NCBI GenBank assembly: GCA_963514005.1
Contig: OY740820.1
Span: forward strand, 13,206,001 to 13,270,000
Direction: 5' to 3'
Length of the DNA stretch: 64,000 nt
DNA from: Raja brachyura
Lineage: Eukaryota
The position numbers were made by a program, and so were the translations under genes. The first letter of the stretch is position 1. The number at the start of each line of letters is the position of its first letter. A model generated the notes under the pieces. The model was not told where the DNA came from. It saw only the letters and a program-made list of their open reading frames with translations, and did no database searches. Below are positions 31,608 through 56,783 of the stretch, one piece after another.

Positions 31608-32005
<398 letters not shown>

Positions 32006-32113
32006 TGAAGTGGATATTGGGAATTGTGCAAGCATTTGGCCACTGCAAAGTGGACAATGGTTGCCGCTGACAGGTGTGCCTTTGGTTTACACCCCCTGCC
32101 GTCAATGTTAATT

Positions 32114-34504: not shown

Positions 34505-34778
34505 AGTTTAGTTTTGAAATACAGCACGGAAACAGACAGAGTTCAACAAGCTGCGCACACTAACACTATCCTACACACACTAGGACAATTTACAATTATA
34601 CCAAGCCATTAGCCTACAAACCTGTAAGTCTTTGGAGTGTGGGAGGAAACTGTATCTCCCATGGACAACCCAGTCGTGTCAGAGGGAGAACACACAAACT
34701 CTGTACAGACAAGCATCTGTAGTCTTGATCGAACCCGGGTCTCTGGCACTGTAAGGCAGCAACTACCGCTGAGCCGCC
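34505..34778 (-). mobile_element. V-SINE (HE1-like)
   Basis: Reverse-complement head and V-domain. Confidence 0.75.
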
Positions 34779-35977
34779 CCAAAACGTTGTGCAAGCAGCC
34801 CCGTCCATCAAGCAAACTCTGTTTAGTTTCTCTTTTGCCCTACCTGGTGTGCTCATGTCTGGCAAGATTTGACTGGATAGCACGCAAAGCAAAGCCTTTC
34901 ATTGTTCTCTCGCTACACATAATAATATAATATATTTATTTATTAAGCACATTTAAAAACAACCCACGATGACAAAAGTGCTGTACAGACCAGAGCAGGT
35001 AGACACAAACAGATCCAGGGCAAACGGGAGTGGCAAGAAGTGAAGACAAGCAGCCAAACAGAGCGGCACAGCCATCGACTTGTTACAGTCATACAGGAAT
35101 AAAAAGTACACAGTAAACGATAGAATTTAACATGAACATCCCCCACAGCGGGATCAACGTTTCTCACTGTGAGGGAAGGCAGTAAAGTTCAGTCCTCTTC
35201 CACTTGTTCACCCGTGGTCGGGGCCTTTAAGGCCTCCGCATTTGCCGCAACAGCGGCCCCCAATGTTTCAGGCCCTCTCGCTGGTATGATGGAGCTCCGG
35301 CGTCGGAACAGAGAACACTCCCAGCCGCTTGGAGTTTCCGAATCGGCCACTTCCTACCGGAGACCGTGGCTCCCGAAATCCACAGGCCGAGCTGGGCGGA
35401 GATTCAGCGCTGGCGATCCCCGGCAAAGATCCCAGGCTCCGCGAAGTTAGAGTCAGCGCCGCCCGCGGCTGGAAGCTCCGCAGACCACTGCTCCACGATG
35501 TAATCAGCTGACCCAACACTCCGGAGCTCCGACACGCGATCCCCAATAGGAATCGCCCGCTCCGCGATGGTAACTCAGTGCTGCGCCGCCGCTGCAGCTC
35601 TGGCAGGAAAGGCCGCGCCAATCCAGATGGTAGACCACGAGGAGGGGGCGAATATGCGGCTCAGAGAAAAGACACATCCTCGACCGGGTAGTGACTGGAA
35701 AAAACTTATTTTCTGGGTTTATTGATTTATTTGGTTTTTTTCTCAGAAAAGTCCTACAGACATTGACTAAGGATTCCTTCAACAGTTAATCTACTTGGGG
35801 TCGTTATTGTACTGTGCCAGTCCCCCCTGAAATGTGAATGTTGAGAACTCGATACCTGACTTTGTCCTTTATAATGTCTCACCTTCTCAGACATAAAACT
35901 TTTGTAAATGGAAAAACTGAAAAACTTTTGTCCTACAAAAAAGAACAAGTTACTTACGCCGTTTTTATTTTTCACAG

Positions 35978-36216
35978 CTCGATGTTATCTTGGAAACAAA
36001 CCTAGCAACAATCCGTGTCCTGGAGGCTGTTCTGAAGAAGCTGTCACGGATGTCAGCGGATGACCAAGCTAAATTCCGTTTGGATAACACCCTTGGAGGA
36101 ACCTCAGAAGTGATTCACCGGAAGGCTATTCAGAGGATATACGCAGACAAGGCTGCAGACATTCTTGATGGCCTGAAAAAGAACCCTGGTGTAGCTGTCC
36201 CTATTGTGCTGAAAAG
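35978..36216 (+). CDS. SIN3A: SIN3A coding exon 12
   Basis: [16 protein letters not shown]...PIVLKR; cacag| and AG|gtagc; 239 nt. Confidence 0.96.
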
Positions 36217-36244
36217 GTAGCTTTATTCTGATTTTATTATCTAA

Positions 36245-36574
36245 AAGCCCTGTCCCACGGTACGAGTTCATTCCAAGACCTCTCCCGAGTTTAAAAAAAA
36301 CAAAACTCGTGGTAAGCACGGAGAATGAACGTAGCGGGTACATCGGAGCTCGGGGACGTTTCTTAGCGTCTCGCAACGCTAACGGCAGGTACTCGGGAAG
36401 ACTCGCTAACGGCAGGTAAGCTCAGGAGGACTCGTGAAGATTTTTCAACATGTTGAAAAATGTCCACGAGAGCCCCGAGTACCGACGAGAGGCCATTACC
36501 GTAAATCTCCGAGTTCGAATCAGGGCAAACTCGGGAGAGCTCTTGGAATTAACTTGTACCGTGGGACAGGGCTT
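36245..36574. mobile_element. MITE, probably PIF/Harbinger-like, with about 48 bp terminal inverted repeats
   Basis: AAGCCCTGTCCCACGGTACGAGTT...CTCTCCCGAGTTT versus AAACTCGGGAGAG...AACTTGTACCGTGGGACAGGGCTT; CpG-rich; superfamily assignment is inference. Confidence 0.8.
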
Positions 36575-37834
36575 GATAAGTATGGCTAAATGTGCTGAAT
36601 ATGACCATTCCAGAGAAGTTGAACAAGTGGGCACCTATATCTGTGATGATTAGGGCCACTGTCATTTTTGTCATGTGCTTCAGAAATGTGACCAAGTGTA
36701 GGTCATGCAACTGCTGGAGTGGCAGTTCAGTTATTCTGTAAAATCATTGTTAATCCCATCGGCTCCACTTTACTGTCTGATCTTCAGCTTCCCAATGACC
36801 CTGTAAGGGAAAGACATTCCTTCTCTTATAGACACAAAATGCTGGAGTAATATCAAGTGATAGGAGCAGAATTAGCCCACCGGACCATCAAGTCTACTCT
36901 GCCATTCAATCATGGCTGATCTATCTCTCCCTCTCAACCCCATTCCCCTGCCTTCTCCCCATAACCTCGAACATCCGTTTCTTTTACACCGAAGATAGAC
37001 ACTTAAATGCTGGAGTAACTCAGGAATGGTGGAAAGAAGGAATGGGTGATGTTTCAGGTCAAGACCCTTCTTCAGAAGGGTCTCGACCTGAAATGTCACC
37101 CATTCCGTTTATCCAGAGATGCTGCCTGTCCCACTGAGTTACACCAGCATTTTGTGTCTGTGGTTCCTTCCTACAAAATTCCTCCTCTGGTCCTAAATTT
37201 CTCATCCTCTCTTAAATAAGTGACCCCCATATTTCGAAATTATGCCTTGTAGTTCTAAGTTCCTCTCTGAGGGGAAGCATCCATGTTGTCACCTCTCTCA
37301 TCCAGACTTTATCCAGATTTTCATACCAAAATCACTCAAGTGAGGTACTGGATTTTGAAACCTTGCCGTCAGGGCTGGATGAACCTTCTGCGGCGTTGGA
37401 GCACCCGACTAGCCTCTCCTGAGACTGCAAGCCCTTGATGGTACGTCTGCAGGCCGCGGTGGGGAGCGATCCCCGGCAAGGGATCCGCTCCGATGGTAAG
37501 TCCGCGGTGGGGCTGACGACAGTCCGAGGGGGCTTTCAGCTCCAGCGATGGTAGGTCGCAGAGCCCGGAGAATGTGATCCGAAACCGGATCACATCTCCG
37601 GGAAGGTAGGAACTTGAAAAAGAAAGTTTCCCCCGACCCCACCACCCCTCCCCCTACATAAAACAAACAGAAGAACATTAAAATAAACTTTAAACAAACG
37701 CTAAAAATAACAAAAAGGATGAAAAAACAAACAGACTGCCGGCAAGGTTGCCGTCTCCCTCCTCCAGTGCTCCCTGCAACTGTGGAAACCGGGTATTACA
37801 AGCAGTGTGACATCACCTTACGGTATCAGTCTAG

Positions 37835-38239
<405 letters not shown>

Positions 38240-40280
38240 TAGCGTCATATAGTTGTACAGTGTGGAAACAATAGTGTCAAGTCAAGAGAGTTTATTGTCA
38301 TGTGTCCCAGATAGGACAATGAAATTCTTGCTTGTCATAGAGTCATATTGTAGTACAGTGTGGAAACAAGCCCCTGTGGCCCACCTTGCCCACACTGACC
38401 AACATGTCCCATCTACACTAGTCCCACCTGCCTGGGTTTGGCCCATATCCCACAAAACCTATCCTATCCAGGCACCTCACTAAATGTTTATTGAACGTTG
38501 CGATAGTTCCTGCCTCAACTACCTCGTTCCATACACCCACCGCCCTTTGTTTGAAGAAGTTACCCCTTCAGGTTCCTATTAAATCCTCCCCCCTCCTCAC
38601 CACCAATATGGAAAGACCTAATGGTCATGCGACACTTGTAGAAATTATCGGCAGCTGTTTGGACCTTAACTTTGAAATTCTGAATCCGTTTAGTGTGCGC
38701 TTGTAGGAAAGGTGAATGGAAAGGTCATACGGAGTTGTTGTTCGAAGTAACCACCGACTTATTGAAACTGGTGCGCACCAGGGACTAGTCAAAGGTGATC
38801 TTCTGAGCGTGAGTTTGGTACAGCTTTTACATTCTCAGCTGACTAGCTTACACAGAAACTTGAATAACAGTGACACTAGGTGCCGACTACAGAATGGAGG
38901 TTGCAGAAAGACTCAATCAGGTAACAAACCAGGTCTTGATTGCAGCACGATACAGCATGGAAAGAGGCCCTTCATCCCAACTTGCCCACACAGGCCAACA
39001 TGTCCCAGCTACACCAGTCCCACCTGCCCCCGTTTGGTCCATATGCCTCCAGACCTATCCATGTGCCTGTCTACCTGTTTCTTAAACGTTGGGATAGTCC
39101 AAGCCTCAACTGCCTCCTCCGTTCCATACACCCAGCACCCTTTGTGTGAAAAAGTTATCCCTCAGATTCCTATTAAATCTTTTCCCACTTCACCTTAAAC
39201 CTATGTCCTCTGGTCCTCAATTCACCTATTCTGGGCAAGAGACTCTGTGCATTTACCCGATCTATTCCTCTCATGATTTTATACACCTCTATAAGATCAC
39301 CCCTCATCCTCCTGCACCCCAATGAATAGAGTCCCAGCCTACTCAACCTCTCCCTATAGCTCAGACCCTAGTCCTGGCAACATCCTTATGAAATATGGTA
39401 GATGGAATTTAATCTTGAAAAATATGAGGTGATCGATTTTGGGACTAAACACTATTCCTGTTATCCTGTATCTACACTGTGGATGGCTCGATAGAAATCA
39501 TGTATTGTCCTTCCGCTGACTGGTTAACCCACAACAGAGGCTTTCCACTGTATGTTGGTACACGTGACAATAAACTAAACAATGTGATTGTACGAGGGAC
39601 ATTGAAGAGAGGACTCACTCTCTGAAGAGTTATTCCAGGGCTAGAGTGTTTCAGCTTTGAAGAGAGATTGGTTTGGCTGGATTTAATTCCTCTGGGTGGA
39701 GAAGGTTGAGGGGAGATCTAACTGAGATGTACAAAATGATGAGGGGCATAGATGGGGTAGAAAGTAGAGAAGTCTATAACCAGAGTGCCCAGGTTTAAGT
39801 CCAGCGTTTTGTGCCTACCTTCGGTATAAACCCGCATCTGCAGTTCCTTCCTGCACAGTTAAGGAAAGTAGAAGATTTAGAAGGGACTTTAGGAAGTTTG
39901 TTTTCCTCACATAAAGAGTTTTTGAAATCTGGAGCACACTGCTTGAGTTGGTGGAAGAGGCATACATTCTCACAGCATTTAAAAAATATTTAGACGTGCA
40001 CCTCAACCCCCATAATAATGAAGGCCACCTGCTGAGTGATGGAAAATTAGGATTAGTATAGATGTGTATTTGATAGCCAGCACGGACATGGTGGGCTGAA
40101 AGCCTGTATATCCAATTGTATGATTGTAAATGTATCTGGCCTTCTGGGCCACCATGTTATCTACCCCTATTGTGGGATTCTAAATGTATCTGGTGTTGTT
40201 AATGCAGTTGTTGAAGGTTTTTGCCGTTCTTTTCCAAACTTATGCCTGATGTTGTTTCTTTTTTATTTGTGCATGTTTAG

Positions 40281-40860
40281 CGGCAAGAACAGGCATCTGA
40301 AGATCACGCACATGTGCCACCTGGCTCTCACTTAACCTTTGTTTATGAGGACAAGCAGATCATGGAGGATGCAGCCTCCCTCATTATCCATCACGTCAAG
40401 CGCCAAGCTGGGATACAGAAGGAAGATAAGTACAAAATCAAACAAATAATTTATCATTTCATCCCAGACCTTTTGTTCGCTCAGCGAGGTGAGCTGTCAG
40501 ATGTAGAGGATGAGAAAGAAGAGGATGAAGATGAAGAAATGGACATGGACGAGAGCACGGGGGCAACTAAAAAGCACAATGGCATTGGCAGTAGCCCACC
40601 CAAGCCAAAACTTATGTTCAGCAACACGGGAGCACAAAAACTGCGGGGCATGGACGATGTGTACAACCTATTCTATGTGAACAACAACTGGTACATCTTC
40701 ATCCGGCTGCACCAGATCCTTTGCTCACGACTCCTGAAGATTTACAATCAAGCGGAGAAGCAGATTGAGGAGGAATGCAGAGAAAGGGAACAGGAGATGC
40801 TGACAGGAAAACGAGACAAAAATGACAGTCCTGCTATTCAGCTTCGACTAAAGGAACCGA
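40281..40860 (+). CDS. SIN3A: SIN3A coding exon 14 (PAH4 region, acidic tract)
   Basis: RQEQASED...[21 protein letters not shown]...LRLKEP; donor A|gtgagt; 580 nt. Confidence 0.95.
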
Positions 40861-41024
40861 GTGAGTATATATGGGATCTAAGTGGGTCTTCCTTATTAGA
40901 AAATACCACCTGTCGTTTATTTATTTTCCTATCACAACAGAGCTACAGGCTAGACTTCAAATTATAGTGCTTGAGCTGTGGACAAAACCGACACAAGTCT
41001 GTACCAAGAACAGCAGTACGATGC

Positions 41025-41285
41025 CACAGCAGTAGAATTGCTGCCTCTCAGCGCCAGAAACCCGGGTTCGATCCTGACTACGCGTGCTGTCTGTGCAGAG
41101 TTTGCACGTGTTTCCCTGTAGGTTATCTTCGGAATCTCCGGTTTCCTCCCCCATCCCAAAGACATACAGGTTTGAAGGTGAACTGGCTTTTGTAACTTGT
41201 CCCTAGAGTGTAGGATAGTGCGAGTGTACAGGGTGATCGCTTGTCGGCGCAGACCTGGTGGGCCGAAGGGCCTGTTTTCTGCGCG
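41025..41285 (+). mobile_element. V-SINE (HE1-like)
   Basis: Head, V-domain and tail motifs. Confidence 0.78.
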
Positions 41286-41713
41286 AGGGACCATAACGGT
41301 GGACAAGAACTATGAGGGGCCGAGTGGGAGGTTGAAGAGACCCTGGTCTCAGGGTCAAAGGATGCTGCTGACTCTCTGGAATGCCTCATCAGTCAGGTAG
41401 ACAATTTGGATTGTAGGAGAGTCTTCAGGATCTGTAATATTGCAATTTAGGAAAAACACTATTGAAGAAATATTTTTAAAGTTAATTTTGTCATCCTGCA
41501 TTTGCATATCTAGATGTGAAACTGATGAGGCCAACCTTCTGTTTTTAACCGGTTAGACGGCTCAGAACACCGTTTTGTATTTCAGTGTAACATTTTAATA
41601 CCACAACAGTGGTATTTGATAATAAGATGGAGCTGGAATTGTGATGCATGTTCCACAAACGTTTGCCTTCATTGTGCCTGTTCCTTGTTTCCTGGAAATG
41701 TTAAGGAACAGTC

Positions 41714-42020
41714 CAGTGGTGCAGCGGCAGAGTTGCTGCCTTACTGCGCTTACAGCGCCAGAGACCCGGGTTTGATCCGGACTATGGGCGCTGCCCGTAT
41801 GGAGTTTGTACGTTCTCCCCGTGACCGCGTGGGTTTTCTCCGAGATCTTCGGTTTCCTCCCACATTCCAAAGACGTACAATTTGTTAATTGGCTTGGTAT
41901 AAATGTAAAATTGTCCTTAGTGTGAGAGGGATAGTGTTAATGTGCCTGGATTGCTGGTCGGTGCGGACTCGATAGGGCGAAGGACCAGTTTCTAAATTAA
42001 AACTGCATCTCTAAACTATA
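41714..42020 (+). mobile_element. V-SINE (HE1-like)
   Basis: Head, V-domain and tail motifs. Confidence 0.8.
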
Positions 42021-43184
42021 AATTAAACAACTTTTCAATATTTTTTAGTTCTGTCTCCAGACATGATAGCAAGGTCAGATTGGCCAGGCTAGGCAGGATC
42101 ACCGTCTGTTTATTCAGAATGAAGTTGCACTTCCTCGCTCACCGTAGCGGCAAATACGGACCATTTTACAAGTAACAAGTCCAAATGCTATGTTTGTTTT
42201 CTGGAGTCAAGCACGGAGAGCAGGCATAGATGTTCAGTGTTTTTCTTCATGAATAATAATTGGAAATAACAAAAGACTGCTTGTGTTAAATAAGTTGACC
42301 TATGGTTGTAGGTCGGGATGATTTATTTATGAATGCATTGTTGCATGGTTAAGCTGCATTGATTGCACTGACTGAGTGTAATCACAATTGATTCTCTGTT
42401 TACCTTGTGGCGAAAGAAAGCTGTTTATTGATTCACATCCAACCTTGTCTGATGAAGCATCTGCTCAACTGTTTCCAGTGAGACTCAAGAAGCACATTTA
42501 TGCAAGATAGGAACAAGTAGTAGATATTGCACATTGTCAGGAAAGCATTATGAATCAACTCCCATAAAATTAATGCACTTGATGTGTGTGGCACTGAGTA
42601 CGTGTCCCCATGCTTGAATGCTTTAAACAGCATTGAACATATTTAAAATCGCAGCATCTTCCATTATACATATTTTACCCATCAGTGACGCATAAAATAA
42701 AATCCGTTCTAAACTGCAATTAGTTTGGAGATATAAAGAATTGCAGATGCTGAAATCTTGAATAAAGCACAAAGTGTTGGAGTAACTCAGTGTGTCAGGC
42801 AGCATCTGTCGGGGGGGAATGAATAGCAACGTTTGGGTCAAGATACTTCTTCAGACTGATTTATTAGTTTAATATTTTCTTTTGCATGTTCTTTTATTTA
42901 TTTTACTATGTGGTGTCACTTCACATGATACTTGTACAATCACCACTAACATTTTAGCAGTCAGTTAATATCCGATGAGCATTGGGGACACATTTGTCTG
43001 CTGGTGCTGGAATCCTGAGCAAAAAACTAACTGCTGGAGGAAGTCAGTGGGTCAGGCAACATCTGTGGAATGAAATGAAGGAGGGACCCCACCTGAAACA
43101 TTGTCTGTCCGTTTGCTTCCATGGATGTTGGCTGATCCATTGAAGATCCTTCAGCAGTTTTTTTTGCATTGGGAACAAATTGTT

Positions 43185-43770
43185 TAGGTTCAGGGTTATC
43201 ATTTTCACATGTACCGAGGTACAGTGAAAAGCTTTGCTATCCAAACAGATCAGATATACCATACATAAATACATTCAAGTCAAACTCAAATACACTAGAT
43301 AGAACGAAAGGGAAGTGGTGAATATAGTTCTCAGCATTGCAGTACATCAGATCCAGAGATGATGTCCTCAATGGGGTAGAGGTGAATTGAGAGTACTCTA
43401 GCTTATGGAAGGACCGTTCAGAAGCCTGATAACGCGGGAAGAAGCTGCTCCAGAGTCTGGAACAGAGGGAAAGAAGCTGTTCCTGAGCACTTTCAAGCTT
43501 CTGTACCTTCTGCCGTACCGGAGCAGGGAGAAGAGGGGATGGCCAGGGTGAGACAAGTCTTTGTATATGTTTGGCTGCTTTGCCGAGGCAGCGTGAAGTG
43601 TAGAAGGAGTCAATGGTGGGAGGTTGCCTCTCTCGGATGGACTGGGCTGCATCTACAACTCTCTATGATTTCTTGCAGTCTCGGGCAGAACTCTTCCCAA
43701 ACCAAGCTGCAATGCAGCCCCACAGTACACTTTCTATCGTGTATCTGTAGCAGATTGTAAAAGTTACTCG
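43185..43770 (-). mobile_element. Rex1/Babar-type LINE 3' fragment
   Basis: DLSHPGHPLFSLLRYGRRYRSLKVLRNSFFP...VIRLLNGP; tail tttcactgtacctcggtacatgtga. Confidence 0.78.
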
Positions 43771-44689
43771 AGACTCTGGTTACTGTGGGTGAAACCTACT
43801 GGTGCCAAATATGGTCGTGCTTTCACTCCCGAGTTAGAAAGCTATTGGATTCAAGCCCACTGCTGCATGACTCGAGCACATGAGCTTAGTTGTTTAATTG
43901 TAGTACTGAATATTACATTGTAAAAAGTGCCATTTGTCAAATAAGACTTTCAAATTATCCAATGTGTACTTGTTCTGTTAATTCACATTGATGTAATAAT
44001 CATATGCTACTACTTCAGTGGGAATTGTGAGTTCTCACTTTTATTCTGTTCAAATTCCTCTTTCAATGAGCGTAACAATATCCAGTGCTTGTAGACTGGC
44101 CGTTCTTCACATTGCTGTTTATTCATTCATTCAGCTGTAATTTACACATTAAATTAAATGCAGCGGAATATTCCTGGCTCTCCGATATTTAATTTTTTTA
44201 AAGTATGTATCCTATTCTATTTGGGATAATAACTGAACTAACTTAAAATAACAAATTAAATTATCTGGGTCCATCCACCCTTTCAATCTGCATTCTAGTC
44301 ATAAAACCACAGACCACAAGACATAGGGGTTGAATTAATCCACTCAGTCCATTGGATCTGGTCCACCATTCGATCATGGCTGATATATTTTGTATATTTT
44401 TATATGATATTTTATAAATGTTATATATATCATTTTATATAATATTATATAAATATTCTTCCCTCTTAACCCCATTCCCCTGCCTTCTCCCCGTAAACTT
44501 TGAAGTATCATGTATGCAATTTTTCAGTTACTTGAGGCAGGGAAGAGGTGTGCGAGACATATTGTGTTTCTGGTGTATAGACCAATGTTTATAAGAGTTT
44601 GAGGCAGGAGTGAACGGCTGAGAATGACGTGCCAGTGAATTACATGTGACTGCTATGTTTAGAAAACTCAATGCAGTCACTCACCAACC

Positions 44690-45135
44690 TTGTCCGTCCT
44701 AAATTACTTCACATCCAATAAAGATATTCTTGAAGCAAAGTTGGAAATAATTGGCAGCCAATTTACACACTTCAAATTTCAGCAACACGATAATGACCAG
44801 TTAAATCATCTGTTAACTTTTCCAGATCGGAAACCTCCTCCCCTTTGCATGTCCTCCAAAAGGAAATGCTGCCTGACCTGCTGAGTTACTCCAGGAATTT
44901 GTGTTTTTTCTTTGCAAACTAGCTTCTGCTGTTCCTTGTGTTTAAATTATCTTTAAAGGCGACATTGAATAAGGGATGAATATTTACCTGAACATTGGGG
45001 ATAACTGTCCTGCTGTCTCCAAAACATAGCCATGGCATTTTATATATGTCAGTTAAAATAACAGCTTGGAGTTGAAGATCTCATTTGAAAGGCTCTCCAG
45101 CATTCCCTCAGTTGTGCCTGGGTGTCAGACCCCAG
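44690..45135 (-). mobile_element. Old Deu-type SINE remnant, split by a Penelope module
   Basis: tctcatttgaaagg...cagcattccctcagt...gtgtcag resembles the reverse complement of the Deu domain; highly diverged. Confidence 0.5.
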
Positions 45136-45260
45136 TCAAATCTTTGTGTCGTTTCTGCAGGTCAATGCCACGAGATCTATTATGTGATAGTTTGATAGGA
45201 TCTACTTTACCCGACCCCAAGGTACAATGCTGAAACCTGCTTTCTCTTGTCTAATTTCAG

Positions 45261-45430
45261 TGGATATTGATGTGGAAGACTATTACCCAGCTTTCCTTGA
45301 TATGGTGCGGAACCTTCTAGATGGCAACATGGATTCCTCCCAGTATGAGGACACCCTTCGGGAAATGTTTACCATTCACGCTTTCATCGCCTTTACAATG
45401 GACAAACTCATCCAGAGTATAGTCAGGCAG
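45261..45430 (+). CDS. SIN3A: SIN3A coding exon 15
   Basis: [56 protein letters not shown]; 170 nt. Confidence 0.96.
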
Positions 45431-45774
45431 GTAAGCTGTCACCGGTTGGAACACTTCTGTCCCTGCCGAAGCCTTGATCTGAATGTTATCTGAGTGGATA
45501 TTTCTGCCCTCTCTGCTCATTGTTGGGGACTGCATTGGAAAGTCAGCAACTGTTGTACGAAGCAACTTTTGGACACAAAGTAATCTGGTGAAGCACAACC
45601 ATTGGGGCACCATAACTCAACGGAGCTGGTCGGGTAGAAAGGCAAATTGGAAATTGTGAGGGGCAGGGATGGTGTGTGTGAAGGAAATTGGTGGAATAGG
45701 GTGAGGAGCCTAACGTCCAGAATTGTCCCACCACTGCACTATTTGTCGCTTTACCCCCCCCCCCCCCCCCCGAC

Positions 45775-46345
45775 TCCATCCAAGGACCCAAGCAGTCTTT
45801 CCAGGTGCGGCAGAGGTTCACCTGCACCTCCTCCAACCTCATCTATTGCATCCGCTGCTCTAGGAGTCAACTGCTCTATATCGGTGAGACCAAGCACGGG
45901 CTTCACCCAACACCTCCGCACAGTTCGCATTAACTAACCCGATCTCCTGGTGGCTCAGCACTTAAACTCCCCCTCCCATTCCGTATCTGACCTTTCTGTC
46001 CTGGGCCTCCCCCATGGCCAGAGTGAGTCCCACTGCAAATTGGAGGAGCAGCACTTCATATTTCGCTTGGGTAGTTTACACCCCAGCGACATGAACTTTG
46101 ACCTCCAATTTCAGGTAGTCCTTGCTTTCTCCCTCCTTCCCCTCCCCTTCCCAGCTCTCCCACAGCCCACTGTCTCCGCCTCTTCCTATCTTCTTCCCCC
46201 CCCACCCCACATCAGTCTGAAGAAGGGTCTCAACCCGAAAAACATCACCTATTCCTTCGTTCCATAGATACTGCCGCACCCGCTGAGTTTCTCCAGCATT
46301 TTTGTCTACCTTCCAATTTCCAGTATCTGCAGTTCTTTCTTAAGC
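45775..46345 (+). mobile_element. Penelope-like retroelement 3' end: GIY-YIG endonuclease remnant plus terminal repeat
   Basis: Hand translation QGPKQSFQVRQRFTCTSSNLIYCIRCSRSQLLYIGETK...VAQHLNSPSHS...KLEEQHFIFRLGSLHPSDMN, then pyrimidine tract and the ctgaagaagggtctc... module. Confidence 0.88.
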
Positions 46346-46451
46346 ATTAGTGAAGGTCTTGCTCAACCATGAGGTGTGTCTGTCACACGTTCACCAGGTT
46401 TTGTTTCTGCTTCTTTTCTGGTTCCTTATCCAGATCATATTGTGGCACAGG

Positions 46452-46636
46452 TAGACAAAAGTGCTGGAGAAACTCAGCGGGTGCAGCAGCATCTATGGAG
46501 CGAAGGAAATAGGCAACGTTTCGAGCCGAAACGTTGCCTATTTCCTTCGCTCCATAGATGCTGCTGCGCCCGCTGAGTTTTCCCGCACTTTTATCTACCT
46601 CCGATTTTCCAGCATCTGCAGTTCCTTCTTAAACAC
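46452..46636. repeat. Palindromic Penelope module with 13 bp TSD
   Basis: ATTGTGGCACAGG at 46439-46451 and 46637-46649; near-perfect inverted arms. Confidence 0.85.
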
Positions 46637-46749
46637 ATTGTGGCACAGGCCATGATTGCTTATCCTGCCCTTAAATTTCTAATGTAATTTTGAAATCTAA
46701 AAACATATTTGAAACCTATTCTCACCTTTTTGTGATTTGCTCTTTTCAG

Positions 46750-46923
46750 CTGCAGCATATTGTGAGCGATGAAATCTGTATACAGGTGACCGATCTCTAC
46801 CTATCAGAGAGTGGAAACTGTGCCACCGGAGGCCCCTTGGCCACCACCTCCTCCCGAGCTGCTATCGAAAGCAACTACCAGCGCAAGTCTGAACAGCTCA
46901 TGTCAGATGAGAACTGCTTCAAG
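46750..46923 (+). CDS. SIN3A: SIN3A coding exon 16
   Basis: [17 protein letters not shown]...[10 protein letters not shown]; 174 nt. Confidence 0.96.
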
Positions 46924-47625
46924 GTAAGTGTGTTCAAATATTCCTCCCTCATTGTTAGCAGCTCTTTCTAAATGACCTCTCGGAAGTTGTGGCAGGGAAT
47001 GAAGAAAGTGGCACCTGAATGGATTTATGATTAGCAATTTGGGAATCTCCCCTCTTCCTTAATTCTGTTCTGTGCAGTCCATTTATTTCTGCCCTAAGGT
47101 TTGAGCCACAATGTATAAGAAGGAACTGCAAATGCTGGTTTATACCAAAGATAGACACAAAAAGCTGGAGTAACTCCGGGGGTCAGACAGCCTCTCTGGA
47201 GAAAAGGAACAGGTTAGGTTTCAGGTCAAGATCCCCCTTCAAATTGAGGGAAAAGTAACGTTTCGGGTCGAGACATCACCTAGTCTTTTTCTCCAGAGAT
47301 GCTGTTTGACCTGCTGAGTTACTCCAGTTTTTTGTGTCTATCTTTGAGCCAAAAAGTATTAACTTTTCCAGTTTTATTTTTAATACTTTTGATGAGGACG
47401 TAGAGGGGAAAGTATCCAATTCACGTTTGTTTATGGATGGGACAAGGGAGGTGGGCTTTTGTATGCTAGTAAAGGTTTTATTATCCTGTTGAAAAAAAGA
47501 CATTTGCTGGATGTGTTGTCAGATCAAATATATTAGTCGCATATATATTATACTTATATAAGTATGCAGGAATTATGTATACTAAAACCACTCAACTCTG
47601 TAATGTTCCTATCCTTTGCTTCCAG

Positions 47626-47718
47626 CTTACATTCATACACAGCAGAGAACAAGTGACGTTGACTATTGATCTGCTGGACACTGAAGAGGAAAACTCAGAT
47701 GGTCCCGTGGAAGCAGAG
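47626..47718 (+). CDS. SIN3A: SIN3A coding exon 17
   Basis: [31 protein letters not shown]; tccag| and GAG|gtaag; 93 nt. Confidence 0.93.
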
Positions 47719-47787
47719 GTAAGCGCAACATGTTGAAGTTAAGATTAAATCGGACAAGGGTGCATAATTGTCTTATGTACCAACAAT

Positions 47788-48055
47788 GGACGGTGGCGTA
47801 GCAGTAGAGTTGCTGCCTCACAGTGCCTGAGACCAGGGTTTGATCCTGACCGCAGGTGCTGTCTGTACAGAGTTTGTACGTTCTCCCCTGTGACCACGTG
47901 GGTTTTCTACGGGTGTTCCAGTTTCCTCCCACACTCCAAAGACGCGCAGGTTCGTAGTTAAATTGCCCCTTGTGCGTAGGGTAGGACGACTGTGCGGGAT
48001 GATCATTGGTCTGCGCAGACACTGTGAGCTGAAAGGCCTGTTTCCACACTGTAGT
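47788..48055 (+). mobile_element. V-SINE (HE1-like)
   Basis: Head, V-domain and tail motifs. Confidence 0.8.
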
Positions 48056-48857
48056 GTTTGAGGATGGGCTGTTTATAGAGTGTAGGAAGGAACTGCAGAT
48101 GCTGCTTTATACCGAAGATAGACACAAAATGCTGGAGTAACTCAGCGGGTCAGGCAGCATCTCTGGAGAGAAGGAATAGATGATGTTTTGGGTTGGAGCC
48201 CTTCTTTGGACTTCATGTTCATGGTCTCTTGTTGCTAATTAATGGGCGGTGAGATGGTGATACTTCACTTTGCTCCGTTACTTGTCGGGCACCGCAGCTC
48301 TGCCAATGGCTTCAGCGTTCCTCTTTAGTTCACATGTGGAGACTTCACTCAGCATCTCATTCCAAGATGTGCTTTCCCGGCATGGTCTTCACACTCTCCT
48401 TATTGAATCAAGGTTGGTCTTCTAGCTTGATGACAAACTGAGGTGAGGAATACTTTGGGCTGTGAAGCCACAGATTGAAGAGGTTAGCAATTATCATACT
48501 GGTAGCTCATAGAATCCCATTGATGCCGATGTTTAAGGTTGCTGCTCATGGAGTCATACAGCATGGAAACAGGCCCATTCAGCCCAGCTTGCCCATACTG
48601 GCCCTTAAGCCTAATTTGCCCACGCCAACCAACATGTCCCAGCTACACTAGTCCCACCTACCCGCATTTCGTCCATATTCCTCCAAACCTGTCCCAATCC
48701 ATGTAACTGTTTCTTAAATGTTGGGATTGTCCCGGCCTCAACTACCTCCTCTTTCCTTTCCTTTCCTTTACCGTAACAGCCATTTCCAGGTTTGTGGGTC
48801 ATCACATAAGCCCGACTGAGTAGGGTATCAGAATCCAAGGCAAATTTTATAATGCAA

Positions 48858-49228
48858 AACATAGAAACATGAAAAATAGGTGCAGGAGGAGGCCATTCGG
48901 CCCTTCGAGCCAGCACCGCCATTCATTGTAATCATGGCTGATCGTCCCTAATCAATAACCCGTGGCTGCCTTCTCCCCATATCCCTTGATTCCACTAGCC
49001 CATAGAGCTCTATCTAACTCTCTCTTAAATCCATCCAGTGACTTGGCCTCCACTGCCCTCTGTGGCAGGGAATTCCACAAATTCACAACGCTCTGGGTGA
49101 AAAAGTTTTTTCTCACCTCAGTCTTAAATAGCTTCCCATTTATTCTAAGACTGTGGCCCCTGGTTTTGGACTCGCCCCAACATTGGGAACATTTTTCCTG
49201 CATCTAGCTTGTCCAGTCCTTTTATAAG
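48858..49228 (-). mobile_element. CR1 LINE 3' fragment
   Basis: TRGHSLRINGKLFKTEVRKNFFTQSVVNLWNSLPQ. Confidence 0.85.
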
Positions 49229-49699
49229 GACTCACAGCTTCTGTTTTAAAGTACTGTACCATTTATGGCGTCCAATCCTGATCGAAGAAGACATTGTGTA
49301 TGAGTCTAGGCTCACTTACATTCTAGCCTTGTTTGGGTTGATGTATACAGCCGCTCTTTGAAGCTTCCTTTACAAAAGGCTAATTAGACCTTGATTTTTC
49401 AAACCCTTGTGTGTTGAGTGTTTTGTATGATGTTACTATCATTCAGAAATGAGTCTGGATGCCTCCCAACTCCTCACAGCTGTATACACTGGCTTTTGGC
49501 AGCGATGTGGGAGTGCAGTGCCTAAATGCTCCTTTGGCAATAGAGGCCTGAGCCCATGGAGACTGGAGATAACTTGCATGTCTTTGATGTGGTTGGCGGA
49601 AAAAACAGATAAAATATTTCTCTGTTTAGAGCCAAGATCAGCCTCTTGGTATGAATCAGCTACTGGCCATTGACTGAAGTTATGTCAAATTCACTGTTT

Positions 49700-50805
49700 T
49701 CATAAGCTAGAGGTGCAGAATTAGGCCATTCGGTCCATCAAGTCTACTCCGCCATTCAAACATGGCCGATCTATCTTTTCTTCTCAACCATATTCTCCTG
49801 CCTCTCCCTATAACTCCTGACACCCGTACTAACCAAGAATCTGTCAATCTCCATCTTAAAACTATCCATTGATTTGGCCTCCACAGCCGTCTGTGGCAAT
49901 GAATTCCACAGGTTCGCCACCGTCTAGCTAAAGAAATTCCTCCTCATCTCCTTTCTAAGGAACGTCCTTTTATTTTGAGGTCATGGTTTCTGAGCCCTAG
50001 AGTCTCCCACTGGTGGAAACATCCTCTCCACATCCACTCCATCCAGGCCTTTCACTCTTCAGTAAGTTTCAATGAGGTCCCCTTCTAAACTGCAGCGAGT
50101 ACAGGCCCATTGCAGTTAAGCGCTCATCATATGTTAATCCAATCATTCCTGGGATCATTCTTATCTTATTGGGATTAAAGATTATACCCATTTGAACAAT
50201 ATAATTCAACGTAACTGGTTGGGCTGTACAGCTACCTCTTGCATTCATAGAAACATAGAAAAATAGGTGCAGGAGTAGGCCATTCGGCCCTTCGAGCCTG
50301 CACCGCCATTCAATGTGATCATGGCTGATCATCCAACTCAGTATCCCGTACCTGCCTTCTCTCCATACCCCCTGATCTCTTTAGCCACAAGTGCCACATC
50401 TAACGCCCTCTTAAATACAGCCAATGAACTGGCCTCAGTTCTCAACTACCTTCTGTGGCAGAGAATTCCAGAGACTCACCACTCTTTGTGTAAAGAATGT
50501 TTTCCTCATCTCGGTCCTAAAGGAATTCCCCCTTATCCTTAGACTGTGACCCCTTGTTCTGGACTCCCCCAACATCGGGAACAATCTTCCAGCATCTAGC
50601 TTGTCCAACCCCTTAAGAATTTTGTAAGTTTCTATAAGATCCCCCCTCAATCTTCTAAATTCCAGCGAGTACAAGCCGAGTCTATCCAATCTTTCCTCAT
50701 ATGAAAGTCCTGACATCCCAGGAAATAGTCTGGTGAATCTTCTCTGTACCCCCTCTATGGCAAGGATGTCTTTCCTCAGATTTGGAGACCAAAACTGTAC
50801 GCAAT
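49700..50805 (-). mobile_element. Two adjacent CR1 LINE 3' fragments (about 49700-50165 and 50245-50805)
   Basis: GLSYEERLDRLGLYSLEFRRLRGDLIETYKILKG; two distinct tails. Confidence 0.85.
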
Positions 50806-50879
50806 TCGTGAATCAGATTTGTTGTTATTATCTAGGTTTTCGTATTTTGATGAAGCTTGGATGCGTTAAAATTCAGATG

Positions 50880-51535
50880 CATCCTGATTTAAGCGTGCCA
50901 TATTGCGGGTGTCAGGTATTGGTGGTGTCATCTTTTGGATGAAACACCAATCTGAGACCCCGTTTACCCTCTAAGGTCGAGGTAAAGAATCTCCAGCATC
51001 ATTTTGAAGAAGACTAGGGTGATGTCGCCCATGTTCTGACCAAACTGTAGCCCTCAACCAGCATGGTTTTAAAACAAAGCTACAGGTTACTTTCACACTA
51101 CTGTTAGTTGGGCCACGCTGTGTGCATATTGCCTGCCAGTCTTAGTTTTGTTTACGTTAGTTTAGAGATACAGCATGGAAACAGGCCCATCGTCCCACCG
51201 AGACCGCGCTGACCAGCAATCCCCGCACATTAACACTATCCTACACACAATTTACAATTTTACTGAGGCCAATTAACCTGCAAACCTGTATGTCTTTGGA
51301 GTGTGGGAGGAAACTGAAGATCTCGGAGAAAACCCACACGGTTATGGGGAGAACGTACAAACTCTGTACAGACGGCACCTGTAGTCAGGATGGAACCCGG
51401 GTCTCTGGCGCTGTGAGGCAGCAACTCTACCGCTGCGACACCATTATTATTACATTACATTTCACAAGTACTGGCTGTAAAATAATTTGGGGCATTTGGA
51501 GATCATGAATGGCGCGATATAAAGGCAAACCACTT
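50880..51535 (+). mobile_element. Old Deu-type SINE split by a - strand V-SINE (about 51145-51443)
   Basis: gtgtcatcttttggatgaaac...ttttgaagaaga...; tail ggcgcgatataaaggcaa; V-SINE motifs inside. Confidence 0.55.
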
Positions 51536-51816
51536 TTAACATAAATCAAACAAAATGAATATTTAAACAAGTCTCTCCCTGTTGTGCCTCTGTCTCCGGG
51601 TGAATCAGCAGAGAAGGGCAAAATCATCACATGGTGACATTTTGCATGAAGGTACAGCAACTTTCAAAGGATTTTTTTCCCCCATGCCCATCCTCATTGG
51701 AAGGAATTTACAAGTATATGTGGATGATAAACTTCAACTAAAGTAGAAAACATTTATGAGCAATATATCCACCTGTCTTGGCTGATGATTTTTGAATAAC
51801 ACTTATCTGTTTGCAG

Positions 51817-51911
51817 CGCTGGTCAGACTTTATGGATCGTTATATGAATTCAGATTCTACCTCTCCTGAACTACGGGAACATCTAGCACAGAAACCTGTG
51901 TTCCTGCCAAG
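51817..51911 (+). CDS. SIN3A: SIN3A coding exon 18
   Basis: [31 protein letters not shown]; tgcag| and AG|gtaag; 95 nt. Confidence 0.95.
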
Positions 51912-52270
51912 GTAAGGGTGCCCTGTTCACTTCCTAGATCAAGTCCTACATAACCACAAGCAGATAATCAAGTAATTATCATTTTGGTGTTGTGGAAGTT
52001 CATACGTTGTTGGAGCAGATTTAGGCCATTCGGCCCATCAAGTCTACTCCGCCATTCAATCACGGCTGATCGATCTTTCCCTCTCAATCCCATTCTCCCG
52101 CCTTCTCCCCCCATCCCATCACACCCGTACTAATTTAGAATCTGTCAATATCCGCCATAGAAATATCCATTGACTTGGCCTCCGCAGCCGTCATTTTGTT
52201 CTGTGTAAATTGAGTCCTGCATTATATCAGTGACTAAATTTAAATCAGCTTCTGGCTATAAAATGGAATG

Positions 52271-52492
52271 TTTAAGAAGGAACTGCAGATGCTGGAAAAT
52301 GGAAGGTAGACAAAAGTGCTGGAGAAACTCAGTGGGAGAGGCAGCATCGATGGAGCGAAGGAAATAGGCAACGTTTCGGGCCGAAACCCTTCTTCAGACT
52401 GGAGAAGGGTTTCGGCCCAAAATGTTGCCTATTTCCTTCGCTGCATAGATGCTGCTGCACCCACTGAGTTCCTCCAGCACTTTTGTCTACCT
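52271..52492. repeat. Palindromic Penelope module with exact 14 bp TSD
   Basis: TATAAAATGGAATG at 52257-52270 and 52493-52506. Confidence 0.87.
52370..52397 (-). ncRNA. Candidate minimal hammerhead ribozyme core
   Basis: Minus strand reads CTGAAGA-A-GGGT-TTCG-GCCC-GAAA-C-GTT, i.e. CUGANGA, stem II with UUCG loop, GAAA, palindromic ACGT and UH. Activity not shown. Confidence 0.6.
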
Positions 52493-52583
52493 TATAAAAT
52501 GGAATGACCTGAAGTTGTGGCAAGCACCATATAAATGCAAATCATTCTTATTGGTTAATAGTACACCATTATAAAGGACTTAA

Positions 52584-52725
52584 GGGCCTGTCCCACTTTT
52601 TTTTGGCGCCATGGCGCTGGATGACGCCTGTTTGGTGGTGAGTAGTTGCCCGAAGAGTCGTACCTTTTTCTGGTCGCCGCTGGATTTTCAACATGTTGAA
52701 AATTTTCGGCGACCTGCTGCGACTT
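52584..52725. mobile_element. Truncated Harbinger-like MITE
   Basis: TAA|GGGCCTGTCCCACT end and ATTTTCAACATGTTGAAAAT palindrome shared with the 36245 MITE. Confidence 0.6.
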
Positions 52726-53439
52726 CCTGCACAAGGAACTGCAGATTTGGTTTACAAAAAAAAAGGACAAAGTGTTGGAGGAACTCGGCGATTCAGGCAA
52801 CATTTCTGGAGAATCCAGAGAGGTGGTGTTTTGAGTTGGGATCCTTCCTCGGACTGATTGTGGTGGGGGAGGGGAAGAAAGCTGCAGGAGAGGGGGGAGC
52901 AGGAAAAAGCCTGGTGAGTGATAGGTGGATACAGGTGGGGAGTGGTTTGATAGGCAGATGGTTGGTCAAGGTCCTCAGTGTGAAGGTGAAGGGTAGAATC
53001 TGGGGAGAATTGATGAGATTCTGGAGAAAATATAAAAATATAGGATTAATGTAAAATGAATGGTGGCTGACGGTATCTCGGTCAAGGTGCTGTTTCCATG
53101 CTGCACGTATCTATGCCTGGTCATAGTCATACAGTGTGGAAACAGGCCTTCAGCCCAACTTGCCCACACCAACCAACATCTTCCATCTACACTAGTCCAA
53201 CTTGCCTGCGTTTGGCCCATATCCCTCTAAACCTTTCCTGTCGAGGTACCTGTCTAATTGCTTCTTAAACGTTGCAATAGTCCCTGCCTCAACTACCTCC
53301 TCCAGCAACTACCACACAAATTCCATGATTAGCTTTTCTTCAATATCTCAGTTATGTACTTCACATGTAGAACACTGTGCACACATCATCTCCCCTCCAA
53401 ATGGTGAAATTACTCATCTTTCAAGGTTAATCTTTCAAT

Positions 53440-54016
53440 CTACAAGGTTAATTCCCGGGATGGCGGGACTGTCATATGCTGAGAGAATAGAAACATTGAC
53501 ATAGAAACATAGAAAATAGATGCAGGAGTAGGCCATTCGGCCCTTCGCACCTGCACCGCCATTCAATATGATCATGGCTGATCATCCAACTCAATATGGG
53601 GCAGCTGGGCTTGTACACTCTGGAGTTTAGGATGAGAGGGGATCTCATTGAAACATATAAGATTGTTAAGGTGTTGGACACGCTAGAGGCAGGAAACGTG
53701 TTTCCGATGTTGGAGGAGACCAGAACCAGGGGCCACAGTTTAAGAATAAGGAGTAAGCCATTTAGAACGGAGACAAGGAAACACTTTTTCTCACAGAGTG
53801 GTGAGTCTGTCAAATTCTCTGCCTCAGAGGGCGGTGGAGGCAGGTTCTCGGCTTTCAAGAGAGAGCTAGATAGGGCTCTTATATAGCAGAGTCAGGGGAT
53901 ATGGGAGAAGGCAGGAGCGGGGTACTGATTGAGAATGATCAGCCATGATCACATTGAATGACGGTGCTGGCTCGAAGGGCCGAATGGCCTACTCCTGCAC
54001 CTATTGTCTATTGTCA
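53440..54016 (+). mobile_element. CR1 LINE 3' fragment containing an antisense CR1 tail insert (about 53487-53595)
   Basis: TRLIPGMAGLSYAER / QLGLYTLEFRMRGDLIETYKI, separated by a reverse-complement tail. Confidence 0.8.
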
Positions 54017-54191
54017 ATAATTATGTTTAGTTGAATGGAATTAGGGGATTATTAAGAGGAAGATGTAATAAGAAAGAGCAAGTTTGTGCCTGGCAGCTGT
54101 AGTATATTTCCTATGGATTTCTCCCCACACTATTCTTATATTTAATTGCAGTCAACTGAAGCACTCATCTGTCCAATTATGCTTTTAACAG

Positions 54192-54399
54192 GAATCTACG
54201 CCGAATTCGCAAGTGCCAACGGGGTCGGGAGCAACAAGAAAAAGAAGGGAAGGAATGCAGCAATAAGAAATCTATGGAGAATGCGGAGAATTATGATAAA
54301 GCACAGTGCAATTTTAAACTCAACTCGTACAAGATGGTGTATGTCTTCAAATCAGAAGACTACATGTACAGGAGGACTGCACTGCTTAGGGCTCGGCAG
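54192..54399 (+). CDS. SIN3A: SIN3A coding exon 19
   Basis: [18 protein letters not shown]...[29 protein letters not shown]; 208 nt. Confidence 0.95.
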
Positions 54400-54465
54400 G
54401 TCAGTGCACTCGTTACAGGCTCCGCGTATCTTTTGAGGATACAAAAAGCAAGATGATGTGTTTAG

Positions 54466-54678
54466 GGAGACAAAAATGTTGGAGAAACTCAGCGGGTGAG
54501 GCAGCATCTATGGAGTGAAGGAAATAGGCAACGTTTCGGGTTGAAACCCTTCTTCAGACTGTTTTGACCCAAAACGTTGCCTATTTCCTTCACTCCATAG
54601 ATGCTGCCTCACCCGCTGAGTTTCTCCAGCAGTTTTTGTCTACCTTCGATTTTCCAGCAACTGCAGTTCCTTCTTAAA
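54466..54678. repeat. Palindromic Penelope module with 17 bp TSD (1 mismatch)
   Basis: CAAGA(T/G)GATGTGTTTAG at 54449-54465 and 54679-54695. Confidence 0.85.
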
Positions 54679-54689
54679 CAAGAGGATGT

Positions 54690-54945
54690 GTTTAGTTTAG
54701 TTTAGAGATACAGCGCAAGAACAGGCCTTTCGGCCCATCGTGTCCGCGTCAACCAGTACTAGCGCTATCCCACACTAGGGACAATGTACAATCTTTACCA
54801 AAGCCAATCAACCTTCAAACCAGTACGTCTTTGGAGTGTCCCAGAGCACCCAGGGAAAACCCACATGGTTACATTGAGAACATACAAACTCCCTGCAGAC
54901 AGGATTGAACCGGGGTCTGGTGCTGTAAGGCTGTGTCGCCCACTG
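54690..54945 (-). mobile_element. V-SINE (HE1-like), internally deleted
   Basis: (TTTAG)n, tail and V-domain in reverse complement. Confidence 0.72.
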
Positions 54946-56117
54946 CACTGTGGATAATGGGAACCAGACATCTAAAAGCAACCGATATTGGGAGGTCCAG
55001 AGTTTCAGGTTGGACATTTTAGCTATAAAAGATTATGCTCCCACCCTTAGATGAAGCTTGAATGTTTCTGCCTTCCATTGGGTATGTTAGTAAGATTGCC
55101 TTATACCTGCTCCGGTGGTAAATAAAATGATGGCTGATCTTTTACCTCAGCACCATTTTCCTGCACTATCCATTGTTCCTTGTTTTCCTTAATATCTAAA
55201 AATCTATCAAAATCTCTCTTGTCCTACCCTGATCATTTCCTCCTTCTCCGCCCTGTTCCTGCCTGACAGAAGGTACAAATGCTTGAGAATGCGCACCACC
55301 AGGAACAGCTTCTTCCCCTCTGTTATCAGACTTCTGAACGGTCCTTCCACAAGCTAGGATATTGTCCGATTCACCTCCACCCCATTGAGGACATTGGACT
55401 TCCGGTACTAAAGAGTTAAAGGGTTACACAAAAAGCTGGAGAAACTCAGCGGGTGCAGCAGCATCTAAGGAGCGAAGGAGATAGGCAACGTTTCGGGTCG
55501 AGGCCCTTCTTCAGACTGGATGTCTGGTACTGTTGCGCTACAATGCTGAAAACTATATTCTACACTCTGTATCCTCCCCTTTGCCCTATCTAATGTACTT
55601 GAGTTTGACTTTATTGTAGTTATCTACAGTTTATTTGATCTGTTTGAAAAAGGCTTTTCATTGTACCTAAACCTTAATCTAGAATGTACTCAAAAACCGA
55701 GCCTCTTCTATCAAAGAGGTTTATAAGTGAAAACATTTCTTCTTATCCCTCTCCTCATGTCCAAACCTTTATTTTGAGCATGTAACCGGTTTTGGACATG
55801 ACAGCCAGGGATATCATCAATCCAGTGTTTATCCTGGCATGATCCATACCAATTTTGTCTGGTTTTGTTATCTTATTTAGCATTCAGATAAACTAGAGAG
55901 AGAGTATAGCCAGTCTGTTTAACCTCTCCTCATCCAATGAACCTACCACCCCAGGAGCTTCAAAAAAGACACAAGTGGGAAATGATAGGCTGAAAATATT
56001 TATTGACTGCTTGTTCACCCCAACCATCACCCAGAGCCAAGTGCATTTTGTCCTGCACATTGAAAATCTTACCTTGGTGTTGGTGTTAACTGGCTTGTCT
56101 CATGAAACTCAATTCTT

Positions 56118-56189
56118 CGTCGCCTATCTCCTTCGCTCTTTAGATGCTGCTGCACCCGCTGAGTTTCTCCAGCTTTTTGTGTAACCCCC
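56118..56189 (+). repeat. 72 bp solo Penelope module with 13 bp TSD
   Basis: AAACTCAATTCTT at 56105-56117 and 56190-56202. Confidence 0.8.
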
Positions 56190-56231
56190 AAACTCAATTC
56201 TTTCTCTGATTGTGTAAGTTTCATGGGTATT

Positions 56232-56512
56232 GGGGCGACATAGTGGTGCAGCGGTAGAGTTGGTGCCAGAGACTCTGATTCGACCCTGACTACGGGCGCA
56301 GTCTGTATGGAGTTTGTACGTTCTTGTGATTACATGGGTTTTCTCCGGGTGCTCCAGTTTCCTCCCACACTCCAAAGACGTACAGGTTTGTGCGGTTAAC
56401 TGGCTTCTGTAAATTGTAATCTGTCCCTAGTGTGTAGGGTAGTGCTAGTATATAGGGATCGCTGGTCGGCGCGGACTCGGTGGGTGGAAGGGCATGTTTC
56501 TCTAAAGTCCAG
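56232..56512 (+). mobile_element. V-SINE ending about 40 nt upstream of the last-exon acceptor
   Basis: Head, V-domain and tail motifs. Confidence 0.78.
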
Positions 56513-56552
56513 TCTATTGACGCCGTGTTTTTCTTCTCTCTTTGAAATGTAG

Positions 56553-56783
56553 TCCCACGAGCGGGTCAGCACGCGGTTACATCAGCGGTTCCAGGCCTGG
56601 GTGGACAAATGGAGCAAAGAGCACGTGACCCGCGAGATGGCTGCCGAGTCCAGCAAGTGGCTAATGGGCGAGGGGTTGGAGGGCATGCTGCCTTGCACGA
56701 CCACCTGCGAAAAGGAAACGCTGCACTTCATGAAAATCAACAAGTACAGGGTGAAATACAGTGCACTGTTCAAGGGGCCATGA
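56553..56783 (+). CDS. SIN3A: SIN3A coding exon 20 (last), ends at TGA
   Basis: [20 protein letters not shown]...[16 protein letters not shown]; 231 nt. Confidence 0.95.

Follow-up and report, generated by a model that had tools for sequence, protein, structure and literature searches.

Minimal hammerhead cores in the terminal repeat of a high-copy Penelope-like retrotransposon of Raja brachyura

Introduction

Hammerhead ribozymes (HHR) in the pseudo-LTR (pLTR) of Penelope-like elements (PLEs) have been described since 2014 and the motif itself is therefore ordinary. Dimers of PLE hammerheads are reportedly treated by Lunse et al. (RNA Biol) as well. For the minimal hammerheads (min-HHR) of metazoan PLEs an inactive monomer and weakly active dimers are described by Cervera and De la Pena (2014, PMC4209133), who call the numbers found in coelacanth (about 4,000) and Xenopus (9,000) remarkable; cartilaginous fish appear neither in the text nor in the two supplements searched, and supplement file 1 of that paper may list some. 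In work on Poseidon from Anolis carolinensis (Frangieh et al. 2024, PMC11167929), the PLE protein nicks both strands in vitro and starts reverse transcription internally at two positions, by which the tail is defined. Its main substrate is uncut RNA, the hammerhead cuts only together with the protein, and cleavage is dispensable for insertion in vitro (PMC11167929). Neptune and Nematis, PLEs with an endonuclease (EN+), are marked by a CX2-5CxxC linker between reverse transcriptase (RT) and EN (Craig et al. 2021, PMC8557442), and an internal promoter is known from Penelope (PMC2377424). Non-LTR retrozymes, tandem units each with a complete HHR, have been reported in one chondrichthyan (bioRxiv 10.64898/2026.07.22.740005). 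According to these sources, the role of PLE hammerheads is not settled (PMC8557442, PMC11167929). Our literature search, with most subscription journals and Repbase/Dfam lying outside it, found no paper on the Penelope-like family analysed here in skates or rays.

Results and Discussion

The core and its repeat in the window

The whole stretch of DNA analysed, 64,000 nucleotides from Raja brachyura and called the window below, contains the coding exons of SIN3A as located by tblastn, with a skate protein as the closest match (95%). An earlier note on this DNA had proposed a minimal hammerhead-like core at three minus-strand sites, and the core is indeed present at all of them (Table 1), each reading CTGAAGA-A-stem II-GAAA-CG-TT on the minus strand. 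The pattern CTGANGA-N{1,25}-GAAA matches 14 times in the window compared to 5.95 ± 2.13 times in shuffled sequences, none of which reached 14 in 100 shuffles. A profile built from 8 natural window copies detected 55 arms at 39 loci, compared to none when the window was reversed. As 34 of these arms extend into the core, the proposed number of about 30 copies is in good agreement, and a self-match depth of 50 versus 17 for the next-deepest repeat makes this the most abundant repeat of the window, as had been claimed. All catalytic bases, ACGT and a paired stem II are combined in 3 of the 55 arms; a strict core scan gave two further matches, namely a copy at 59794 with a G-T-only palindrome and an unrelated chance match. 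Every one of the four plus-strand copies that had been listed beside the minus-strand ones turned out to be broken, with the ACGT palindrome missing at 20690, G12 lost at 25512, GAAG in place of the GAAA box at 32839 and a 2-nt insertion at 46217. A canonical Rfam hammerhead was rejected, as no model matched (no hammerhead match in the window at E ≤ 1), and Rfam matches on inverted pairs were miRNA-like and below threshold only.

Table 1: Features of the window and their positions (position 1 is the first nucleotide of the window).
Feature	Position	Strand	Remark
Intact minimal hammerhead core	52370..52397	-	C3 at 52397; antisense to SIN3A
Predicted scissile bond of the 52370-52397 core	between 52370 and 52369	-	
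2-bp stem I of the 52370-52397 core	52398-52399 with 52368-52369	-	
Long arm of head-to-head insertion	52271..52401	-	core, downstream module, 35-nt tail
Inverted partner arm	52395..52492	+	no tail, damaged core
Arm pair	52271-52401/52395-52492		predicted hairpin of about 95 bp
Target-site duplication, left copy	52257..52270	+	14 bp
Target-site duplication, right copy	52493..52506	+	14 bp
Intact core in tail-less arm 54464-54561 of second inverted pair	54530..54557	-	antisense to SIN3A
Partner arm of second pair	54561..54677	+	tail present, core truncated
Flanking duplication of second pair	54450-54465 and 54680-54695		16 bp, one mismatch
Core in solo tail-less copy 55425-55518	55487..55514	-	3-bp stem II only; youngest subfamily; antisense to SIN3A
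5'-Truncated Penelope-like copy	45772..46346	+	GIY-YIG remnant with frameshift, then stop, 3' UTR rich in pyrimidines, broken core at 46217, tail
Second Penelope-like copy	25145..25640	+	ORF end, 3' UTR, decayed core 25512, tail
SIN3A coding span	6999..56780	+	
SIN3A introns containing the three minus-strand cores	51913-54183 and 54400-56552	+	

Layout of the hammerhead core

Positions are given in the hammerhead numbering. Genomic sequence of 1.64 Mb contained 89 intact cores and its reversed version none, and H17 is C, U or A in all 89. The repeat shows the boxes CUGANGA, GAAA and UH in order, and it shares with the metazoan PLE min-HHR (PMC4209133) these core boxes, the unpaired nucleotide (bulge) before stem II, G10.1-C11.1, the palindromic 15.2–16.2 without a loop III, the position in the pLTR and mostly single dispersed copies with opposite-strand pairs nearby. 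A stem I of about 2 bp had been predicted and was found in 65 of the 89 intact cores; pair 2.1-1.1 is formed in 101 of 111 cases and 2.2-1.2 is G-C in 100 of 111. The palindromic helix III was likewise recovered, as 249 of 481 arms carry ACGT and the two next variants (96 and 46 arms) are CpG-decay products of it. Unlike the Schistosoma-type min-HHR described in PMC4209133 with 7–8 bp in stem II and 4–5 bp in stem I, these stems have 4 and 2 bp here. An extended stem I was not found in older subfamilies; the 4 cores with 4 bp derive from local duplication or flank. In the copies L086, L145, L196 and L079 the 5' end repeats the core word GAAGGG, with stem I reaching 4 bp by accident, which is perhaps due to re-priming of the RT at the template end.

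With non-LTR retrozymes the repeat has the type I HHR and the relationship to PLEs in common, but retrozymes are tandem units that each possess a complete HHR and the copies here are solo or head-to-head (bioRxiv 10.64898/2026.07.22.740005). A tandem non-LTR retrozyme was rejected, as at least two tandem units with complete HHR are absent from window and sample. Same-strand tandem arms are rare altogether, occurring at 2 of the 39 window loci and at 1 of the 117 loci of the genomic sample. At 19622-19833 two same-strand arms lie 106 nt apart with the same AT-rich word ahead of each and neither core intact, suggesting re-insertion at a duplicated target. On the layout features tested (boxes, bulge, G10.1-C11.1 and palindromic helix III) the motif belongs to the metazoan PLE min-HHR class, with a helix I of 2 bp as the less certain part. 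As a relative for a between-family comparison, one metagenome locus among 160 candidates was considered and discarded (34% identity, no core motif, apparently unrelated).

The parent element

We identify the repeat as the pseudo-LTR end of a Penelope-like retrotransposon which, by its linker, is of the Neptune type; RT, CxxxxCxxC linker, GIY-YIG, stop, 3' UTR, core and 35-nt tail follow each other in the parent element. The earlier note was right in proposing a minimal type I hammerhead of the Penelope type in a retroelement present in very many copies, and its linkage to an element with RT and GIY-YIG is shown directly. Already within the window the copy at 45772 ties the motif to its parent element, with the GIY-YIG remnant showing a Pfam E-value of 0.004, which is under the cut-off. 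The ORF end is joined to the core in 37 of 46 pattern rows (2 of the 37 are duplicates and the remaining 9 rows unrelated flanks). In two long copies frameshifted reading frames for RT and endonuclease are joined by a C-x4-C-x2-C linker, and in one copy containing both frames GIY-YIG was found by Pfam with E = 5e-5 (over cut-off) and RVT_1 with E = 0.015 (under cut-off). The RT piece has 756 homologs of 561–2000 aa with shark proteins on top at 63–69%, and many of the homologs have RT and GIY-YIG; its full-length homologs contain both domains. A PDB sequence search with the same piece gave 0 matches. Of the 90 listed homologs in which a YIG motif occurs, 88 possess the C-x2-5-CxxC linker, and it is by this linker motif that a placement in the Neptune/Nematis clade is suggested. 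The C-terminal GIY-YIG with CCHH pattern, the CX2-5CxxC linker, partial tandems, an inverted 5'-truncated partner and a one-sided tail of 30–40 bp are all as in EN+ PLEs, from which the family differs in its extreme excess of terminal stubs (PMC8557442).

Of the 25 loci analysed with an ORF 5' end, 3 show the full partial tandem, in which ORF end, UTR, core and tail are followed by the start of a new ORF, and a further 11 have core or tail directly before the ORF start. The next ORF begins about 160 nt past the core, its ATG lying 163 nt after C3, and this tandem arrangement is a standard pseudo-LTR. As in Poseidon, the HHR is located at the pLTR-ORF junction, two 3' ends lie about 35 nt apart (the tail) and nothing points to ends at the cleavage site (PMC11167929). 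In contrast, the ORF of Poseidon starts inside the core and its case is shown in vitro (PMC11167929), whereas we have a linker of the Neptune type, an ORF about 160 nt after the core and evidence from genome sequence alone. All long copies have a CAG after a pyrimidine tract ahead of the core. The UTRs upstream differ among subfamilies and the core is the majority state throughout.

Copy number and age

In 38 blocks of 10 kb, taken at fixed positions and not as a random sample, we counted 147 arms at 117 loci as well as 20 intact cores; the arms make up 3.7% of the DNA. For a genome size of 2.70 Gb this extrapolates to 1.03 million arms (0.78–1.28) and 142,000 intact cores (85,000–199,000; both ranges by block bootstrap, rerun with 145 arms), and genic DNA contains 54 intact cores per Mb. 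The estimate of about 140,000 lies far above the counts for coelacanth and Xenopus given above from PMC4209133. Copies of the youngest subfamily are 96–100% alike (L085, L084, L186 and others, as well as 55425-55518 and 62689-62776 in the window), showing that amplification was recent, and it may still be ongoing in this subfamily. Two arms of one and the same young subfamily, 55425-55518 (-) and 56118-56183 (+), face away from each other at 600 bp distance, each with its own flanks, and are possibly independent insertions.

Copy ends and inverted pairs

Ends were mapped for the 381 of 802 arms with at least 85% identity. Their 3' ends cluster at two sites, about +90–96 and +127–131, and 127 of the 381 arms begin at -5..-1, just before CUGA, compared to 9 at +27..+29. 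Because divergence among subfamilies sets in upstream of -4 and may exaggerate the peak at -5..-1, the youngest subfamily with its known UTR was examined separately (n = 49): 21 copies start at -5..0, 17 extend into the UTR, and no start lies further in than +20. With a stricter anchor, true starts at the cleavage site were found in 0 of 131 solo copies in 1.99 Mb, a number at which rare cleavage below about 2–3% would escape; two candidate copies starting there proved to be internal deletions. Together, the 5' ends just before the core and the lack of starts at the cleavage site indicate that the templates were likely uncut RNAs starting at this position. A cap-derived extra G was not seen at the 5' junctions (5 G of 18 at the A-3 boundary), so the start site is read from the pile-up itself, and a stalled RT would look alike. 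An RNA start at the core is thus weakened by the missing cap G and helped by the internal promoter of Penelope (PMC2377424). In a poly(A) run from the same or a related organism 7,871 and 8,257 reads contain the repeat, 93–94% of which continue into unlike sequence; no pile-up of starts or ends occurs at the cleavage site in this fragmented library, which is unable to show such ends.

About a third of the arms (296 of 802, that is 148 pairs in 1.64 Mb) are part of head-to-head pairs, 83 of the 148 joining an arm with tail to a short one and 8 joining two arms with tails. Duplications of at least 9 bp (range 9–17 bp) flank 32 of the 148 pairs versus 2 of 148 controls. The pair junctions cluster at -5..-2, +8..+12 and +23..+25, which correspond to the near-palindrome CAG-T-CTG, stem II and ACGT. 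The window pair at 52255-52510 and 13 other head-to-head pairs are predicted to fold into near-perfect pre-mRNA hairpins of 60–100 bp on either strand. In the manner of inverted Alus, such arm pairs could supply a large share of the dsRNA, of the substrates for A-to-I editing or of the signals for back-splicing.

A possible insertion cycle would begin with an element RNA starting at the CAGT ahead of the core, which resembles the initiator consensus. The element protein would nick both target strands, and reverse transcription would be primed internally at two sites, as has been seen for Poseidon of the anole in vitro. Run-off synthesis up to the 5' end of the RNA would give stubs of 100 and 135 bp, and inverted pairs could form from two cDNAs annealing at the short core palindromes. 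To cut, the ribozyme would need to be a dimer or to have the element protein, and cutting would belong to another step of the cycle; after insertion the core would decay mainly at CpG (G12, G16.2). We consider it likely that the motif is the minimal hammerhead core of a PLE terminal repeat and that the dispersed copies are short insertions, probably made from uncut element RNA and probably inert. More tentatively, and with slightly less than even confidence, we propose that the load of intact cores (about 140,000) exceeds the largest printed count we encountered more than 10 times and that the stubs record the PLE cycle in vivo, with an RNA start at the first bases of the hammerhead, two internal RT sites on two target strands, an uncut template and palindromes joining the cDNAs. 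If true, the hammerhead would be a late, protein-gated switch or a 5'-end structure and not a tool that frees the template. The value lies in the dataset, a young family with about 10^6 insertions, in which the genome shows where RT began, where the templates ended and whether ribozymes in introns are under selection; on a first pass it reads as uncut templates and intronic copies tolerated on either strand.

Decay and selection

The structure-preserving variation of stem II that had been claimed was not upheld, as double transitions among copies of this family occur at chance level at all four pairs (369 arms). The AGGT/ACCT type is present in 7 of these arms (Fisher p = 0.46; p = 0.26, 0.61 and 0.63 for the other three pairs), the commonest variant at 10.1-11.1 is G-T (59 arms), a CpG-decay product, and a one-sided change from U-A to U-G is found in 29 arms. 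The apparent covariation is CpG decay plus chance, and only the U-A to U-G change looks like a subfamily trait. G12 and G16.2, both located in CpGs, are mutated in 26–40% of the copies; G12, mutated in 26–28% of the arms against about 6% at non-CpG core positions, belongs to the fastest-decaying positions. Non-CpG core positions are slightly less divergent than the flanks (0.059 vs 0.082, p = 0.025), which we attribute to subfamily variation in the flanks and alignment bias, and weak constraint could play a part as well.

Strand preference was analysed in 1.25 Mb from SIN3A and 38 genes for myosins, phosphatases and kinesins, the latter represented by 120 blocks that lie between their exon matches, with gene spans taken from domain hits, a few of which may include tandem paralogs. 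Introns of these 39 genes contain 32 intact cores in sense and 35 in antisense (p = 0.81), 67 cores among which a mild bias would escape. The broken cores are distributed 145 to 144 (Fisher p = 0.79 against the intact ones) and all arms 321 to 322. In predicted folds of the monomer, stem II has a probability of 0–0.05 and stem I of 0, by programs that take neither tertiary contacts nor protein into account. The predicted partner of the purine-rich core strand is instead the downstream UCCUUC or the tail, and paired arms are predicted as long hairpins (-163 kcal/mol, z = -20.6). Strand parity, copy ends and the search for starts at the cleavage site thus do not support ribozyme action of the dispersed copies, which had been called ribozyme-bearing, and the genomic copies look inert.

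SIN3A as host gene

From the 40 arms within the SIN3A coding span 25 are sense and 15 antisense. Twelve sense arms reach the core and none of them is intact; from the nine antisense arms that do so three are intact, all located in the last introns. Many copies in the SIN3A pre-mRNA, as the earlier note had put it, therefore holds for arms inside the gene and fails for an intact ribozyme core on the transcribed strand, of which the pre-mRNA has none. These data give no reason to assume a ribozyme regulation of SIN3A.

Alternative explanations

That the core is a degenerate ribozyme in this lineage, having lost cleavage and being kept only as a promoter or protein-binding sequence of the element 5' end, is a rather unlikely alternative. 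It would agree with the 2-bp stem I of 65 of the 89 cores, the predicted pairing of the core strand with UCCUUC or the tail, the lack of covariation and of a cleavage footprint, and the dispensability of cleavage for insertion in vitro (PMC11167929). Yet all catalytic positions, ACGT and the two pairs of stem I prevail as the majority state in subfamilies with diverged upstream UTRs, and a 2-bp helix I is also described for the D. virilis Penelope (PMC4209133). We regard a 3' splice site or a stalled RT as an unlikely origin of the pile-up of 5' ends, compared to a transcription start. The pyrimidine tract and CAG before the core in all long copies would fit such a reading, as would the missing cap G and an intron of D. 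virilis that ends at helix I (PMC4209133), but the sampled DNA contains no spliced junction of ORF end and core and no such GT-AG joint is listed among the RNA reads. Moreover, the upstream flanks of short copies are unrelated without a common exon (69 unique vs 7 shared), and the ends are scattered over -5..0 and not fixed at -1.

Very unlikely, in our view, is an independent non-autonomous family of stubs, SINE- or retrozyme-like and spread via circular RNA, even if most copies are very numerous pieces of only 100–135 bp and retrozymes are proposed to derive from PLE pLTRs (bioRxiv 10.64898/2026.07.22.740005). Stubs share their subfamilies with long copies that include the 3' UTR (17 of 49 copies of the youngest one), same-strand tandems are as rare as given above and no copies start at the cleavage site. 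It is hardly credible that intact copies scattered over the genome cleave pre-mRNAs of the host, either in cis or as dimers formed in trans among the numerous copies, with effects on genes like SIN3A. Genes do contain about 54 intact cores per Mb, half of them sense, and the repeat is abundant in poly(A) reads of both strands; however, the sense strand is not depleted, none of the 12 core-spanning sense arms of SIN3A is intact, G12 decays freely and the predicted long hairpins would keep paired arms locked.

Other repeats of the window

Three open frames of 125–253 aa (17249-17785, 27643-28404 and 50435-50812) without a match in Pfam resemble, as we assume, C-terminal parts of ORF2 from CR1-type LINEs. 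A second common repeat with a tRNA-like head and about 15 copies, among them 7300-7498, 12577-12851, 41022-41277 and 47790-48050, is presumably a SINE. At 5059-5547 (-) the window also contains the N-terminal remnant of a Tc1/mariner transposase (Pfam HTH_Tnp_Tc3_2, E = 6e-8), which is split by another repeat.
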